A stretch of DNA of 64,000 bases. Origin: an uncultured candidate division Zixibacteria bacterium. Lineage in GTDB: Bacteria; Zixibacteria; MSB-5A5; UBA10806. This document shows positions 21,894 through 28,648 of the stretch, in pieces. The stretch spans positions 448,001-512,000 of the forward strand of contig CAWFQL010000012.1 in assembly GCA_963817915.1 (NCBI GenBank), in the 5' to 3' direction. The notes under the pieces are model-generated. The model worked only from the letters and a program-made list of their open reading frames with translations, was not told where the DNA came from and searched no databases. Every line of letters begins with the position of its first letter. Within the stretch, counting starts at the first letter, position 1. The translations under genes were made by a program, and so were the position numbers.

Positions 21894-24175
21894 TTTGATT
21901 CTGCCTCGATAGTTAGAAGTGGATTTTCAGCTAGTCGTAATTCAAGCAATGATTGTAGAAAGGCCAGTGTCGACTCGGCCCCTTGATTCTCGTTAGGCCG
22001 GTCCGGATGCAGGCCATCCCGGCAACCTCCAGTTGTTGGATCGTAAACTGGAAGATTCAGGTCGTTGCGTCCGAGAAACCATTCGAAAGCGCGACGGGCT
22101 TCCTTGCGCCAACGTTTATCTCCCGTGATCCGGTAAGCTTCGAGGCAGGCGGAGACCATCGCCTGAGCCTCTACCGGTTGTTGATCGAATCGGGCGCGCA
22201 CGCCATTTTGCTGATAAAAGCCATTGGATCCGATAGGCACAAAATGCCCTTTCTCTGACCGTTGAAGATCGGCCAACCAGCCAAGCGCTTCCAGTCCGGT
22301 TTCGGTCATGGCGGCATTCGGTATTGATTGGCCGCACATGAGCAACGCATGCGGTAAGGCAGCGTTACAATAAGTCAGTTTATCTTCATACCAGTGCCAG
22401 TTCTCCGAGCGATTATCTTGATACAATTTCAATAATCGTCCGGATAATTCCTCGCTGACCTGGTTGGCTCTACTGTCACCGGTAAACCGCTGTAAATATT
22501 CATGGATTCCAATAAGCGCGAATGCCCAGGCGCGCGGACTGGTTGTGTTAAGGATCGCTGGCAAAGCCTGTTCAAACAAGCGGCCGGCCATACTTTGTAA
22601 GGCTGGTATGTTCGATCGTCCTAAGACAATGCCCAAGCGCCCATAACGTGCGGCCGTGGCTATCATCGGAACCGTTAACTTCCAGCCAATTACGCTGATA
22701 ATCCATAAAGTTACGAAAACATCCCGTTTCAGTATTGAAAGCATACCAGATAAATGCAAGATAACGGGAGGCCAGTTCCGGGGCTTCTCGATTACCTATT
22801 GCTTCCAGAAGAGCGCTTACCATCAACGCACGGGCGTTGTCATCGGTGGTGTATCCCTCTATATAATTGGGGATCGTGAAAATGGCATGTTGTAATATGC
22901 CGGTCTCATCTGTCATATGATGCAAGTGGTCTGTTTTAAGAGGCGGCAATTCACCGGGACGTTTGTCCAACGGCTTAACCGCGAATTCCTGCCGAGCAGA
23001 AATGACGCCGCTCCGCCCGCGCGCGTTCGAAGCTTTCCATATAACGACTCGCCACCTGCGGCCAGATCATATCTCTTCCAAATATGTAGGCTTTCTTGCG
23101 CATAGCATGTCGCTGGGATTCGTTGTCCAGGAGACTGATTACCTGATCGGCCAGCGCCGCCGGGTCCCGAAAAGGTACCAACGCTCCACGTCCGTCGGCC
23201 AGCATCTCTTCGGCATACCAGTATGGTGTTGAAATTACAGCCTTGCCGGCCCCTACAGTATAAGCAAGCGTGCCCGATGTAATTTGTGCGGCATCAAGAT
23301 AGGGCGTGATATAAATATCCGCTACGCTTATAAATTGAATAAGCTCTTCCAAACTGACAAAGCGGTCATAAAAAATCACTTGACCCTCTACACCTTTCTC
23401 CTGAGCCAGCCATTGCAGTGATAGCCTGTATGATTCGCCGTCATTCCGCAATACATGGGGATGGGTAGCGCCAAGAATTATGTATACTACATTTGGGTAT
23501 CGGGCTAAAATATTGGGAAGGGCTGAAATGACATTCTCGATCCCTTTGTTTGCCGAGAGCAAACCGAAGCTAAGTAAGACAATTTTGCCTTCGACTCCAA
23601 ACAGGTCTTTGTGAAAACTTGGATCGACAAATGGCACGTCAGGAATGCCATGAGGGATTAAATCGATCTTTCCCCGGGTCTACACCATATACTTCTTGCA
23701 GAAATTCCACGCCGCGCGCGCTCATAACCACCAACCGATCGGACAGGGCCGCCACTTCCTTTAATACTCGAAGCTGATTGGGATCGGGGTTTCGCAATAT
23801 GGTATGTAGAGTCGTGACAATAGGCATCCGCAATTCTCGCAAGAGGGCCAGAATATGGCTGCCAGCATGCCCTCCGAAAATACCATATTCGTGCTGGAGA
23901 GATATAAGATCTACATCGTTGATGTTCAAGAAATCGGCGGCGCGACGATAGGAATTAATGTCTTTTTCGGTAAGTTCAAACCGAACACGGGTTGGATATG
24001 CGTAGCCGGCCTCGATATCATTTACCGGAAGCACGATGCAGGTTTTTTGACTGTACTGGGTGGCAATGGCCTCACACAAATCAGTAGTAAAGGTGGCAAT
24101 GCCGCAATGGCGCGGCAGGTAGTTGCCGATAAATGCGATGCGATCAAGTTTGGAATTATTAGAATCGTTATCCAT
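21890..24175 (-). CDS. GT4 glycosyltransferase fused to an (alpha/alpha)6-barrel-like domain (split by about 3 apparent frameshifts)
   Basis: GNYLPRHCGIATFT, LQHEYGIFGG, SGTLAY, GYTTDDNARAL, FDQQPVEA, NQGAESTL spread over four ORF pieces. Confidence 0.82.
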
Positions 24176-24820: not shown

Positions 24821-25261
24821 CTATTGGAGGCTATGTATTTCGATTTTTCTTCTTTCACACACATCATTAAAATGATGGATATCGGAAGTAACCAAATAAT
24901 CAATGTGCAAACTTTCATTTTGAAGCATATTTCGAATAATCATATCTACAAAACTAACGCGCCTTTTACCTCTAGCTGCCAATTCAATGGTCTCTTTTAG
25001 TGCCCTATCTCTATAAGGAGAATCATCTATATATGATACAGATAATTCTGCCATACTTCTTTCAAATTGAGCTACGCACAAACTATTTCCTAATAATCTA
25101 GTATTTAGAAATTCATAAAGAGTGGGCCAAGGCAATGCAAAATTAAAAAGCCTAATTTTCTCAAAGGCCATAATAGATTTCTGATGATATTGATCGTTTT
25201 TATCAAGTAAACCAATCCAGAATACAGTATCGGCTAATATGAAACGCGGTATCTTATTCAT
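24821..25261 (-). CDS. PIN-domain (VapC-like) ribonuclease
   Basis: ILADTVFW, TLYEFL, SFVD, TSDIHHF acidic motifs; ATG at 25261 overlaps the upstream stop. Confidence 0.82.
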   Translation of the reverse strand: MNKIPRFILADTVFWIGLLDKNDQYHQKSIMAFEKIRLFNFALPWPTLYEFLNTRLLGNSLCVAQFERSMAELSVSYIDDSPYRDRALKETIELAARGKRRVSFVDMIIRNMLQNESLHIDYLVTSDIHHFNDVCERRKIEIHSLQ

Positions 25262-25571
25262 CCTGACCACTTCCCACTGTTTTCGCTGCATATCCGAGCC
25301 AAGGAGCCACTTTTCTCTGTCCTTTGATAAAACTCCCAATTGATTTGCCATTTTCAACACGCACAATGTAAATTCTATCTTGTAATCTTAAATTCATCGC
25401 TGCAGACAAATCTCTCTTTATTTCATCCAAAATATTCTTTTCATATTCATAATAAAAAAAAGAAAAATTACCTACGCATTCCTTGGCTTCTTTTGAATCT
25501 AGCCAATGAAATAAATTCATATAGTCGCCATCTATCCCCAAATCGTAAGATAACCAAATTGCCATTTTCAT
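25254..25571 (-). CDS. Small hypothetical protein, possibly Cas2/VapD-like fold
   Basis: GGAGG RBS before ATG 25571; AIWLSYDL strand-Asp motif; coupled to the PIN gene. Confidence 0.6.
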   Translation of the reverse strand: MKMAIWLSYDLGIDGDYMNLFHWLDSKEAKECVGNFSFFYYEYEKNILDEIKRDLSAAMNLRLQDRIYIVRVENGKSIGSFIKGQRKVAPWLGYAAKTVGSGQDE

Positions 25572-25792
25572 TTTTACCTCCATGCTAATCTAGACCAAGA
25601 CTTTAGCTAATATAATAAATAAAACGAAGTCTATCATTATTTTTTATTTAATTCGCTTTTTATATTTATCGACAAGATTTTAAGCAATTAAATTTATGAA
25701 TAAAGTTAAGTCGTATTTTCTGCTAAGCAGCAAAATCTAATATTTCAAAATATAAAGGCTTCTTCAAATCCCTTAACGACTTAGGAAGCCTC

Positions 25793-25819
25793 AATTCAAT
25801 GGAGGCGGGGGGAATCGAA
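25793..25819 (-). repeat. Exact 27-bp duplication of the tmRNA 3' end
   Basis: aattcaatggaggcggggggaatcgaa identical at 25793-25819 and 26129-26155. Confidence 0.92.
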
Positions 25820-25870
25820 GTCGCCATAGGCGACCAAGCCCCTGGCTTGCCTTGCCCGCCTCAGGCGGGC
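25820..25870. repeat. Three tandem mini-palindromes with a GCC-N3-GGC core
   Basis: gtcgcc-ata-ggcgac, caagcc-cct-ggcttg, gcccgcc-tca-ggcgggc. Confidence 0.85.
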
Positions 25871-26112
25871 CACGTCCGAGGATATCTTTCGTCTAACCAT
25901 TTACGGCCAACGCCTGATTTTAAAAATATTTCCCTTTCCCGTGCAGCATCGTAATTTTCAAATTGCTCGGTATGGATCAATTTAAATTCGCCAATGATTT
26001 GGCCGCCCTTGGTCTGTCCTGAATGATGTTCAGATAGACGACGTTTAAGATTGTTGGTTATTCCAACATATCGCTTGCCCTCTTCTCCCTGTAATACATA
26101 AAGATGAACCAT
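25861..26112 (-). CDS. Stand-alone GIY-YIG nuclease
   Basis: LYVL...YVGITNNLKRRLSEH, AREREIFLKSGVGRKWL. Confidence 0.9.
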   Translation of the reverse strand: MVHLYVLQGEEGKRYVGITNNLKRRLSEHHSGQTKGGQIIGEFKLIHTEQFENYDAAREREIFLKSGVGRKWLDERYPRTWPA

Positions 26113-26135
26113 TTAAAATTCTTTATTAAATTCAA

Positions 26136-26490
26136 TGGAGGCGGGGGGAATCGAACCCCCGTCCGAAGATGCCTCAGAAAAACCTTCTACACGCATAGGC
26201 AGTCATTTGATTCTCGACAATTGGAACGCCGACAGCCAGGCTTTCCTTTTGTCCAGCCCCCTTTTTTTTCGCCCCGCAGCCGGAGACATTCCGCAAGGCT
26301 ATCTTATCAGTATCGACGCTCTATCCCAAGCCGATAAGCAAGCTTAAGTAGAACGAGCCACCAGTGTTTTAGGCAGCTAGTGCGTACGAATAATCGTTGG
26401 CACTTGTAGTGTTTCCCGGTGTTTAACGAGATACTGGGACCTCGGCGCGCCAGTTTGACCTCGACTATCCCGTCGAAACCAATCGCCCCC
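26136..26490 (-). ncRNA. ssrA: tmRNA (transfer-messenger RNA)
   Basis: 5' GGGGGCGATTGGTTTCGAC; 3' GGGGGTTCGATTCCCCCCGCCTCCA; tag reading frame ANDYSYALAA* at 26401-26369; 355 nt. Confidence 0.95.
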
Positions 26491-26769
26491 ATGTTTTCAA
26501 AGAGCAAAAATAACACTTCATCAAATCAATATAAACATCGACTTCAAGGCGGTCAATCTATCTATACATTTATTTTACTCCATTTTTTGTTCCAATGTTT
26601 CGAAATATACTTTCAATTAATGTCCGGATTTGGTATAATAAGCGGCGGTATGAATTGGTTATCATTAAACCAATTGGGAATTGAATGACCCTGTTCGGGA
26701 TACTGGCAGGGCTTTGCCGGGGATAAAATTGAGACCGGGATCTCCGGTACAATTTTAAAATACAAACTC

Positions 26770-27853
26770 ATGAAATCAGACATTTTTTCAATAATAGCAG
26801 GTACAGGAAGCTATATACCCACAAGAATTGTCAGCAATGATGACTTCCTCCAGAATGAATTCTATAATGTCGATGGCATCAAAATCGATAAAGACAATCA
26901 CGAAATAATCAATAAACTCAAAGAGATTACCGGTATTACCGAACGACGATATGTTACCGACGATCTTAAAGCATCCGATATAGCCCTAATGGCCGCCCAG
27001 AATGCTTTGCAGTCATCCGGTATCGACAAAGAAAGTTTGGATTATATCATTGTCGCTCACAATTTCGGCGATATCGGAGCCAATAATAGAAGATCGGAAT
27101 TCGTGCCGTCACTGGCAGCGAGGGTAAAGCATAAATTGGCCATAGCGAATCCTTATACAGTCGCCTATGATTTGCCATTCGGATGCCCCGGGATGGCTCC
27201 AGGGTATTATTCAGGCCGATTACTACATTCGATCCGGCGATGCCAAACGGATCATGGTTATAGGTGCAGAGACATTATCCCGAATTTCTGACCCGCACGA
27301 CCGCGACAGCATGATTTACGCTGACGGAGCCGGCGCAACAATTCTGGATGCCAGGGAAAGCTCGTCGCCTGTCGGGATTCTGGCTCATGCCACACGTTCG
27401 GATACGCTTAATGAAGCGTTTATGCTCTGGATGGATAAATCCAATAATCCCAATCATAAAGAAAATGATTTATTCCTCAAGATGGATGGCCACAAGCTTT
27501 ACGAATACGCGATCAAGACAGTTCCTCAAGTCGTAAAAGATGCTCTGACCAAGGCAGGGCTGGCTCTGCGCAATGTCTCAAAGGTTTTGATGCATCAGGC
27601 CAACGCCAAATTAGATGAAGCTATTTTAAAACGAATATACAAACTCTACGACGAAAAAGATGTGCCCGACGATATTATGCCGATGACCATTTATCGCCTT
27701 GGCAATAGTTCAGTTGCCACCCTGCCGACAATGCTTGATTTCCTGCGGCAGGGGATTCTCAACGGCTATAAATGGAAAAGTAATGATATACTGGTGCTTG
27801 CCTCGGTAGGAGCTGGTATGAATATCAATGCGGTAATCTATAAAACACCCTAA
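26770..27853 (+). CDS. fabH: 3-oxoacyl-ACP synthase III (apparent frameshift near 27190)
   Basis: GTGSYIP, TGITERR, FGCPG (catalytic Cys), DGAGA, HQAN, GNSSVA, SVGAGM across two ORFs. Confidence 0.85.
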
Positions 27854-27860
27854 GTAGTAA

Positions 27861-28648
27861 ATGCTTCATAGAATTAATATTAACGTCGCCGATATCCGCA
27901 AAAAGCCCAAATTCAAATCCGAGCGAAGAACTCAAGCATTATATAATGAGCCCGTCGAGATTTTAAGCAAGGGCAAGCTGTACTCGCGCGTAAAATTGCA
28001 TGACGGTTTTAAGGGGTATATTAATAACCTTTTTATATCGAACGATGAAAGTCGACCTGGAGTAGATTATACCGTCAAATCAGTTCTGGCCTCTGCCTAT
28101 TCTATCCCCGGCAAAAAATCTTCTATAATCACAATGCTGCCGTTCGCGGCAGAAATTAAAGCCGAAGTTTATTCCGACAGTTTTGTCTTATGCAAATGCC
28201 ATAGATATGGTGATTTCTATATCGATAGAAATGATCTTGATTTTATCTAGCGAAAAACCGAAATTGACATTCGATAAGGTCCCCGAAATGATCGATCTAC
28301 GCCATGAAATTTATGGGTGTTCCATATCTCTGGGGCGGCAGGTCTTATTTCGGAGTCGATTGTTCAGGTTTTGTAAATATTATTCTGAAATACTTTGGCC
28401 TGATAATGCCAAGAAAATCGAGACATCAGAAAGAAATTGGCAGGAAAATCGGGCAGACCGAAATTCGGCCCGGAGATTTACTCTATTTCCCGAAACACGT
28501 GGGAATTGCCCTGTCTCCAACCGAGTACCTTCACTCCAGCCTCTCACAGGGCGGTGTCCATATCAATTCATTCGATCCGACTCAAAAAAGCTATCTGAGA
28601 TATCGCGATTTGACTTTGAAGGCTATTAGAAGAGTGACTTTAGATTAG
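27861..28648 (+). CDS. SH3 + NlpC/P60 (C40) cell-wall peptidase (apparent frameshifts at about 28240-28305)
   Basis: TQALYNE SH3-like N-terminus; GVPYLWGG, GVDCSG, PGDLLYF, HVGI. Confidence 0.8.

Follow-up and report, generated by a model that had tools for sequence, protein, structure and literature searches.

We analysed a stretch of 64,000 nucleotides (nt) from an uncultured candidate division Zixibacteria bacterium (GCA_963817915.1, contig CAWFQL010000012.1, positions 448,001 to 512,000), which is called the window here. Directly behind ssrA, the gene for transfer-messenger RNA (tmRNA), it contains a small cassette on the minus strand: a GIY-YIG nuclease gene, a set of GC-rich hairpins and a second copy of the tmRNA 3' end (Table 1). 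The tmRNA gene is kept whole, and the cassette lies between its complete 3' end and a displaced, hairpin-interrupted 3' end. Both ends carry the same exact 27-nt sequence, which begins at the first T of the T-loop and recurs with a start-to-start spacing of 336. As an exact 27-mer that recurs within 1.1 kb, this repeat is not a chance event. The GIY-YIG gene, which encodes 83 amino acids (aa), is the only open reading frame (ORF) between the two copies. The original prediction, made from the letters alone, had described this bracketing of a lone nuclease gene by the ssrA 3' end, and we confirmed it. It had also placed the gene start 24 nt behind a tmRNA CCA tail. The distance holds, as the ATG begins at the 24th nt past the last tmRNA base. 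The tail does not, since the gene encodes no CCA; the three letters are the last two bases of the acceptor stem plus the discriminator (CCUCCA, followed by UUG).

Three perfect hairpins with a GCC-N3-GGC core interrupt the displaced copy at the junction of T-stem and T-loop, as had been proposed. On the forward strand they read GTCGCC-ATA-GGCGAC, CAAGCC-CCT-GGCTTG and GCCCGCC-TCA-GGCGGGC; they are named H1 to H3 in the direction of transcription. Folded as DNA, they reach -25.3 kcal/mol (z -2.7). On the nuclease side they are preceded by a stretch that resembles the tmRNA sequence just 5' of the T-loop and that we call psi-left; 12 of its 14 positions are identical to ssrA 26157-26170. The last seven codons of the nuclease gene (YPRTWPA) come from this tmRNA-like stretch and from H1, and its TGA stop codon (25861-25863) is the loop of H1, which agrees with the original reading of the C-terminus. 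In general form, the sense strand of such a unit may be read as intact gene, 23-nt spacer, nuclease gene of about 83 aa, copy of the 5' strand of the T-stem, two to three hairpins, and a copy of the gene from T54 to its end.

Table 1. Features of the ssrA locus and its cassette (positions within the window)
Feature	Position	Strand	Basis or score
Promoter-like site TTGACC-17-TATATT, upstream of ssrA	26528..26556	minus	consensus match only
ssrA, intact tmRNA gene (tag ANDYSYALAA; no encoded CCA)	26136..26490	minus	ARAGORN; Rfam RF00023 185.6 bits, model 1-374
Direct repeat, copy 1: functional tmRNA from T-loop to last base (20 nt) plus 7 nt of flank	26129..26155	minus	100% identity, 27 nt
Spacer between tmRNA end and ATG, 23 nt, too short for a promoter of its own	26113..26135	minus	
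Single-domain GIY-YIG nuclease gene, 83 aa	25861..26112	minus	Pfam PF01541 E 4e-12
Psi-left, repeats the tmRNA sequence that adjoins the T-loop on its 5' side, within the ORF	25870..25883	minus	
Hairpin H1, sense strand CCCGCC-TGA-GGCGGG, loop = stop codon	25854..25870	minus	
Hairpin H2, sense strand CAAGCC-AGG-GGCTTG, variable middle hairpin	25835..25849	minus	
Hairpin H3, sense strand GTCGCC-TAT-GGCGAC, abuts first T of displaced T-loop	25820..25834	minus	
Direct repeat, copy 2 (pseudo-copy): displaced T-loop to tmRNA 3' end plus 7 nt of flank	25793..25819	minus	
Possible terminator for the entire unit, an inverted repeat of 7 bp (AGGCTTC/GAAGCCT) with a 22-nt loop, then T-rich run	25756..25791	minus	read from the sequence, conjectural

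The nuclease matched Pfam family PF01541 with 46.7 bits (cut-off 22.6) over model residues 3-66, as its one domain. Y5, Y15, G17, R25, H29 and E61 are invariant in 54 aligned homologues, and we take Y5, Y15, R25, H29 and E61 to have catalytic roles. In eight pairs of homologues the ratio of nonsynonymous to synonymous substitution rates (dN/dS) was 0.06-0.18 (0.17-0.18 against L064 and L065), with saturation in two pairs; the ORF is under purifying selection. An AlphaFold 2 model (predicted local distance difference test score 88) showed the order E-E-H-H-E-H-H and no extra domain. The closest sequence matches in the PDB were UPF0213 proteins (E 1.3e-7), and the best Foldseek matches were UPF0213 protein BH0048 and Slx1, followed by the N-terminal domain of UvrC and by I-TevI. 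In sequence and fold, the protein is thus most like UPF0213 (PDB 1ZG2, BH0048; 1YWL, EF2693) and the nuclease domain of Slx1. The UPF0213 structures carry no known function. According to the titles of its PDB entries, Slx1 is a structure-specific nuclease for branched DNA; unlike the window protein, it has an additional RING domain and a partner, Slx4. Judged by the model and these matches, the window protein is a bare single-domain GIY-YIG protein of the UPF0213/Slx1 type that resembles the Ssn nucleases. The NCBIfam comparison gave no informative family for it. The two-fold symmetry of the hairpin module, described further down, prompted a homodimer prediction, whose score of 0.01 counts as evidence neither way.

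With regard to expression, the site TTGACC-17-TATATT is the only promoter-like site placed to drive ssrA and the cassette, and it is weak on its own (two promoter-like sites found against 2.9 expected in shuffled sequences). Terminator and promoter scans called nothing inside the cassette. The terminator scan had a loop limit of 8 nt, hence the candidate terminator of the whole unit in Table 1 was not called. Given the 23-nt spacer and an interior free of promoter-like sites, the nuclease would be expressed by read-through from the ssrA promoter. No integrase, transposase or recombinase domain was found in 14 ORFs within about 6 kb of the cassette (the 12 that reach 100 aa in the interval from 19.4 to 32.7 kb, and the two that adjoin the element), as the original prediction had stated.

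We then compared the locus with those of relatives. A homologue of the nuclease was present at E ≤1e-5 in 19 of 40 genomes of the same class. In the four genomes with the closest homologues (G003, G004, G031 and G040; 55-74% identity), which represent three families, the gene follows immediately 3' of ssrA and the parts come in the same order, so that ssrA carries the cassette in these genomes as it does in the window genome (G000). In all four, the protein tail is (Y/F)PRTG, encoded by the tmRNA-like sequence TTCGGACGGGG; two to four GC hairpins come next, with TTCGATTCCCCCCGCCTCCA after them, and psi-left lies inside the ORF likewise (L006-L009). In G003 (L006), the functional copy ends in CCTCCA followed by TTA and the displaced copy in CCTCCA followed by CCA. 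Ten ssrA loci of relatives from the window's own family (f1) were examined. Two of them carry the cassette, six that are readable downstream are free of it, and two are unreadable (contig end; N). The cassette-free loci include those of G011, which is of the same genus as G003, and of G008, which is of the same genus as G004. Of the empty ssrA sites that the original prediction suggested looking for, the six cassette-free loci are candidates, but no precise empty site could be defined, since the flanks of filled and empty loci are not alignable.

Within f1, filled and empty genes do not differ in the T-arm or the acceptor end of the functional tmRNA. The proposal that the nuclease targets T-loops is not borne out by this comparison, as the functional T-arm is letter for letter the same with and without the cassette; a nuclease that cuts T-arms would therefore keep cutting the gene of its own host. 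Other subfamilies in the relatives occupy tRNA-fMet and tRNA-Gly, frequently with two or three units in tandem, and in G017 the units lie upstream of the tRNA and contain copied 5' parts plus leader. At some ssrA loci (L166:1380-1900; L065 and L007:1350-1500), units without an ORF, each made of a pseudo-end and a hairpin module, are stacked before and after the GIY-YIG gene, which suggests that a unit of about 90 nt can multiply by itself.

A six-frame search of the window genome revealed four more GIY-YIG genes. Three of them form a tandem array with a period of 322 right behind tRNA-fMet (contig C16:333700-334800, L002-L004), and each unit consists of a spacer, the ORF and a tRNA copy from the D-arm to the 3' end. 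In these pseudo-tRNAs a hairpin of the form TCCGCC-N3-GGCGGA replaces the 3' strand of the anticodon stem, and the ORFs stop in the pseudo-anticodon loop. Upstream of the tRNA-fMet gene lies a hairpin-interrupted copy of the 5' part of the tRNA. The window cassette and its paralogues thus share a small GIY-YIG ORF, a co-oriented tRNA or tmRNA gene and a partial copy of that gene interrupted by a GC hairpin. The fifth gene of the genome (contig C17:67800-68500, L005:1269-1800) is only 35% identical to the window protein and sits on a long branch of the protein tree. It is flanked by several copies of a repeat that equals the NTS motif of the Ssn nucleases with two mismatches, and it is probably a true SsnA-like gene. 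It also lies beside a second hairpin, ATTCCGCA-N5-TGCGGAAT.

To examine the distribution of such units, a profile of five ssrA-type proteins was used; it detected 302 relatives in species-representative genomes, of which the best 80 were analysed. In 59 of these 80 loci, ARAGORN identified a co-oriented tRNA or tmRNA gene directly beside the ORF (45 upstream, 11 downstream, 3 on both sides). Several of the other 21 loci start at a contig edge or contain a recognisable displaced 3' end. The target genes comprise tRNA-Pro, Ser, Ala, Val, Leu, Asn, Gly, Asp, Glu, His, Gln and Lys besides tmRNA, which amounts to at least 12 specificities. The hosts belong to more than 10 phyla; those given in the record titles include Zixibacteria, Verrucomicrobiota, Desulfobacterota, Nitrospirota, Kiritimatiellota, Sumerlaeota, Ignavibacteria and Patescibacteria, with 41-73% protein identity. 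Of 80 metagenome loci sampled independently (best identity 70%), 50 had a co-oriented tRNA or tmRNA gene upstream. Behind the ORF, 38 genome loci and 57 metagenome loci, out of 80 in each sample, showed the pattern of H3 followed by a T-loop. The nearest metagenome homologue (70%) lies at a tRNA-Glu gene that is similar to tmRNA in its T-arm region. The predicted combination of duplicated tRNA 3' ends and hairpins in the flanks of homologues is hence present in many loci, and an integrase-free unit of recurring design beside tRNA and tmRNA genes is supported by both samples.

These data bear on two explanations that would make the window cassette a local accident. An assembly artefact created by the 27-nt repeat is conceivable in a draft metagenome-assembled genome (MAG) that has several split ORFs and offers no reads over the cassette. 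The same architecture, however, occurs in dozens of independent assemblies, including complete-chromosome records (L078, L101 and L069), and the ORF is intact and conserved; an artefact is scarcely credible. The cassette could also be the remnant of an integrase-mediated genomic island at ssrA, with the repeats as attL and attR and with integrase and cargo deleted. Integrases of the T-loop class leave just such a direct repeat from the T-loop to the 3' end. Against this, no integrase domain lies within about 6 kb, the same minimal unit of about 320-350 nt was seen in more than 100 loci of independent assemblies, and neither a conserved hairpin module nor the fusion of the ORF to the pseudo-copy is expected from random deletion. 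We regard the island remnant as close to refuted.

The edges of the repeat were determined in the 32 genome loci in which the displaced end could be seeded exactly. In 18 of the 32, the repeat starts at T54 (23 nt of the gene), which supports the T-stem/T-loop junction as the break point; in seven it starts at position 60, with a further hairpin in the T-loop. In 16 loci the repeat ends with the last base of the gene, otherwise up to 20 nt beyond it. The repeat would be expected to stop at the mature 3' end if the conserved tRNA were the sole homology between donor and recipient, because the flanks would then come from each of the two. A target-site duplication of fixed length was ruled out, as the right edge varies from 0 to +20 nt and may include the terminator. 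In two cassettes of a single Verrucomicrobiota MAG, L103:1370-1860 (tRNA-His) and L119:1370-1850 (tRNA-Asp), the duplicated segment includes the terminator hairpin of the tRNA, and the two terminator copies of L103 differ by compensatory changes. The idea that selection preserves pairing of psi-left with the T-stem found no support, given the mismatches in tRNA-Val and tRNA-Ser examples.

To characterize the hairpin module, 33 elements were aligned: the window and 32 of the 38 genome loci that match GCC-N3-GGC followed by TTCRANT within 2-4 nt. The aligned loci also matched a looser pattern for the first hairpin; seven were dropped, six because they lack this pattern and L109 because its only match lies upstream of the ORF. 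The 5' part of the consensus consists of psi-left, (C/T)CCGCC-NRA-GGCGG(G/A), TAAAGC and a variable middle hairpin ending in GCTTG; the 3' part consists of TGCGCC-TYN-GGCGCA followed by TTC(G/A)AATCC. H3 was paired in 100% and H1 in 98.5% of the alignment cells, against about 40% when the partners were slid. These values are to be read with the selection patterns in mind: the three apex pairs of H3 were preset by them, as was part of H1, whereas the three outer pairs of H3 were free to vary. Three of the six pairs of H3 show compensatory changes. In the whole module, six pairs changed on both sides and there was no one-sided (G-U) change, whereas the tRNA-derived T-stem helix contained 13 G-U cells in the same alignment. 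The base of H2 (CAA../..TTG; helix 3) is partly conserved and paired in 78%. The window module fits this scheme with the loop TGA in H1, a minimal H2, and an H3 with a compensated stem (GTCGCC/GGCGAC) and the atypical loop TAT. The hairpins are therefore an integral part of the unit, as had been proposed, and they are conserved and covarying.

The two outer hairpins are related to each other. The loop of H1 is N-R-A (a purine at position 2 in 26 of 30 elements, A at position 3 in 25 of 30), and that of H3 is T-Y-N (27 and 32 of 33), its reverse complement. The flanks GGCGGG-TAAAGC and GCTTG-TGCGCC are likewise near mirror images. Since both loops and flanks mirror each other, we read the module as an inverted repeat of one GCC-NRA-GGC motif, which appears on the sense strand at H1 and, by its sequence, on the antisense strand at H3. 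The strict Watson-Crick pairing and this strand symmetry suggest that the module acts at the level of DNA rather than RNA. An origin of the palindromes resembling that of P-nucleotides was ruled out, as the hairpin sequence is conserved independently of the target.

The original prediction also asked for a genome-wide count of GCC-N3-GGC hairpins and for a test of their enrichment beside GIY-YIG genes. With a GCC apex, a stem of at least 6 and a loop of 3, the genome has 63 hairpins, while three first-order Markov simulations yielded 10-17, so they are enriched; all such hairpins with any apex were together only about 1.2-fold enriched. The tie to GIY-YIG genes was found in part. Genomes with a homologue have more of these hairpins, but only 6 of the 63 lie next to a GIY-YIG gene. 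The other 57 cap at least five unrelated families of longer palindromes, as is mostly true of the 48 CCGCC-N3-GGCGG contexts. The extended form TCCGCC-N3-GGCGGA occurs 33 times in the window genome and 0 times as a reversed control. Among the relatives it reaches 213 copies in G018, 71 in G029 and 61 in G016; most have 0-8. The median is 6 copies in genomes with a homologue and 1 in those without (one-sided Mann-Whitney p 0.009, with kin not independent). As (T)CCGCC-N3-GGCGG(A), 13-15 nt long, the motif appears as a mini-hairpin inserted into the loops of other hairpins, e.g. at C6:102690, C6:102862, C9:291554 and C17:74343. The palindrome families it caps include gtcattgcga.., gtaggtcgg.., ggcggaacc.., gtcacgg.. 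and gcatgct.., and one family resembles a decayed T-arm.

These numbers allow for another view, namely that the hairpins are an independent, tiny palindromic repeat, similar to repetitive extragenic palindromic (REP) sequences or miniature inverted-repeat transposable elements (MITEs), which invades loops and dead DNA and has nothing to do with the GIY-YIG protein. The 57 hairpins away from GIY-YIG genes fit this view, as do the 18 stretches read in G029, where TCCGCC-N3-GGCGGA again sits at the tips of varied stems. A clear exception to the association with the gene is G016, which has its 61 copies yet no homologue at E 1e-5. On the other hand, the sequence of the module (GGCGGG-TAAAGC ... 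GCTTG-TGCGCC), its order, its frame relation to the stop of the ORF and its position at T54 are kept across phyla, and the module is conserved while the ORFs have diverged to a dS of 0.7-1.7. The higher hairpin counts in genomes with a homologue also speak against independence, with the same reservation about kinship. We consider an independent repeat quite unlikely.

The closest described system is that of the Ssn nucleases with their SRM hairpins (Chenal et al. 2025, PMC11893778). As described in the main text of that paper, Ssn nucleases are single-domain GIY-YIG enzymes that cut single-stranded DNA (ssDNA) next to the hairpin repeats flanking their own genes; NTS/SRM hairpin repeats go with SsnA of Neisseria meningitidis (CDD cd10448). 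The window protein shares with them the small single domain (83 aa here, about 90 aa in Ssn), a gene physically tied to GC-rich hairpin repeats, and hairpins that occur elsewhere in the genome as well, in higher numbers if the gene is there. The strict Watson-Crick pairing found here would fit recognition as DNA. There are also clear differences. The hairpins are of the type GCC-NRA-GGC with 3-nt loops and not CGTCATTCCCGCGMAVGCGGGAATCYRG (SRM/NTS), so SRM/NTS flanks are lacking; they lie inside a duplicated tRNA or tmRNA end and on one side of the gene only; and the window protein is only 35% identical to the NTS-flanked paralogue of the same genome. tRNA and tmRNA are mentioned 0 times in the main text of PMC11893778. 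Our full-text literature search yielded papers on mitochondria and phages besides the Ssn paper and found no account of tRNA-nested bacterial GIY-YIG cassettes, while the supplements of that paper, which lay outside the search, may list such homologues.

Other known systems share single traits with the cassette. The Seg proteins of T-even phages, such as SegB in a tRNA cluster, are encoded by free-standing GIY-YIG homing endonuclease genes that move by 'intronless homing'. Like them, the gene studied here is a stand-alone GIY-YIG gene at tRNA genes, and the presumed mode of spread of Seg genes is break-induced copying that co-converts the flanks. Unlike Seg proteins and I-TevI, which have a separate DNA-binding domain and at least 200 aa, the protein is a bare catalytic domain of 83 aa, and the host is a chromosome rather than a phage. 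Seg genes are not known to have a hairpin module or a duplicated gene end. Integrase-borne islands in tRNA and tmRNA genes likewise insert at the T-loop and restore the gene by a direct repeat from the T-loop to the 3' end (27 nt here), but the cassette has no recombinase, measures about 0.33 kb and carries hairpins at the junction.

In Allomyces, a fungal mitochondrial mobile endonuclease ORF in atp6 brings a replacement gene end with it, and Allomyces mitochondrial DNA (mtDNA) has GC-rich double-hairpin elements (Paquin et al. 2000, as cited in PMC2800124). As in that case, the target gene here stays functional via a duplicated terminal part that comes with an endonuclease ORF, alongside GC-rich hairpins, which in Allomyces are mobile elements. 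The target there is an organelle protein gene rather than the T-arm of bacterial tRNA or tmRNA genes, and hairpins do not form a constant component of the Allomyces cassette. REP sequences with their RAYT enzymes, and IS200/IS605 elements, resemble the cassette in combining one small nuclease gene with short dispersed palindromes recognised as hairpins, and REP palindromes are over-represented and dispersed like the putative cognate hairpins of the window nuclease (63 against 10-17; 33 against 0). Their enzymes, however, are HUH/Y1 transposases that form covalent intermediates, whereas a GIY-YIG enzyme only hydrolyses DNA and cannot transpose by itself. IS200/IS605 is also raised in the Discussion of PMC11893778.

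Taking these results together, we favour the interpretation that the cassette is a member of a widespread family of integrase-free selfish mini-cassettes lodged in tRNA and tmRNA genes, and assign it a probability of roughly 60%. The cassette looks selfish rather than useful to its host. Its mobility is deduced from the pattern of sequences only, because no filled and empty allele pair with identical flanks is at hand. Recognition or spreading of the hairpins by the nuclease, as originally proposed, is a conjecture by analogy with the Ssn nucleases (PMC11893778). On the protein tree, the target labels cluster (38 changes against 50.9 in shuffles; 0/200), with host phylum confounded with the labels; 11 changes are needed for the 12 tmRNA-associated rows, and three ssrA cassettes of f1 group together.

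Several observations weigh against a selfish, mobile cassette. No allele pair of the kind just mentioned was found among the relatives, which are different genera, and an exact-match scan of metagenome contigs with the junction of pseudo-end and flank gave 0 matches. Contigs of four public runs match only the conserved part of the tmRNA and not the cassette (none of the public read runs shared more than 0.15 of the sampled words), and thus bear neither on transcription nor on polymorphism or assembly. The approximately unbiased (AU) test did not reject a single origin of the 12 tmRNA-associated proteins (p 0.236), in a tree built from an alignment of only 84 columns; on this result we dropped the claim that the tmRNA association arose repeatedly, and frequent target switching is not supported. 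Simple homing by cutting the empty site would lack immunity, as the T-arm is identical in filled and empty genes. The proposed course does not account for the match of both module sides to the resident tRNA, nor for changes of tRNA species. In one of the public runs (X3, freshwater sediment), a 952-nt contig contains window positions 25800-25837, i.e. the displaced tmRNA end and H3, with 0 differences over 38 nt and with unrelated sequence on both sides.

Some of these observations would be accounted for if the gene were a domesticated, immobile Ssn-type nuclease, parked behind a highly expressed tRNA or tmRNA gene for its expression. The hairpins would then be a stabiliser or terminator of the mRNA 3' end or a regulatory site, and the duplicated end an old scar. 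The strong purifying selection, the lack of any direct sign of movement in the public runs and the exact-match scan, the grouping of the three f1 cassettes, which fits vertical descent, and the single origin not rejected by the AU test all agree with this view, and in Neisseria, according to the main text of PMC11893778, Ssn has a role for the host in transformation. It does not fit the patchy presence within genera and families, the tandem arrays and solo pseudo-copies, or 41-73% identity over more than 10 phyla and at least 12 different tRNA species. Moreover, H1 and H3 are free of any G-U pair and are mirror images on opposite strands, neither of which a role in RNA requires. We therefore judge domestication to be unlikely.

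For a selfish cassette, the following course of events can be envisaged. The nuclease might bind the module as extruded or single-stranded DNA and, by analogy with Ssn, nick next to it, hitting the sense strand at H1 and the antisense strand at H3. Such breaks, with the conserved tRNA or tmRNA sequences as homology arms, could lead to copying of the cassette into the same gene of other genomes. The same copying might reach genes with similar T-arms and might also produce the tandem stacking. Going further, the cassette could be a self-contained element that spreads by 'T-arm homing', a mechanism of a new kind. In this scheme, an Ssn-like nuclease of about 80 aa would recognise an inverted GCC-NRA-GGC pair extruded on opposite strands and nick beside it. 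The conserved T-arm and 3' end would serve both as a safe harbour and as homology arms, allowing spread across phyla without a recombinase, and the same enzyme would seed 15-nt mini-hairpins into other DNA hairpin loops (tRNA arms, REP-like stems) throughout the genome. This joint proposal is tentative, and we would not expect all of it to hold.

If true, the cassettes, at about 0.33 kb and with a single 83-aa protein, would rank among the smallest known mobile units that are autonomous and would colonise some of the most conserved bacterial genes without destroying them, in many phyla including uncultured ones. They would account for many 'pseudo-tRNA' calls and tandem oddities beside tRNA genes in annotations, and the idea of Ssn hairpin nucleases would be widened from a host function to a selfish life style. 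They would also provide a set of tiny nucleases with readable cognate hairpins beside each gene, whose specificity is testable and which are possible tools for ssDNA. The mirror symmetry of H1 and H3 leads to a concrete, falsifiable prediction of the cut positions.

In the surroundings of the cassette, two overlapping ORFs of 181 and 109 aa lie directly downstream (24821-25583, minus strand); neither has a Pfam match at E 0.01. Three neighbouring genes are each split into two adjacent or overlapping ORFs, namely those for a glycosyltransferase (22975-24175), a FabH-like ketosynthase (26770-27853) and an SH3 plus NlpC/P60 protein (27861-28648). These splits probably reflect either frameshift errors in the draft assembly or genuine pseudogenes.

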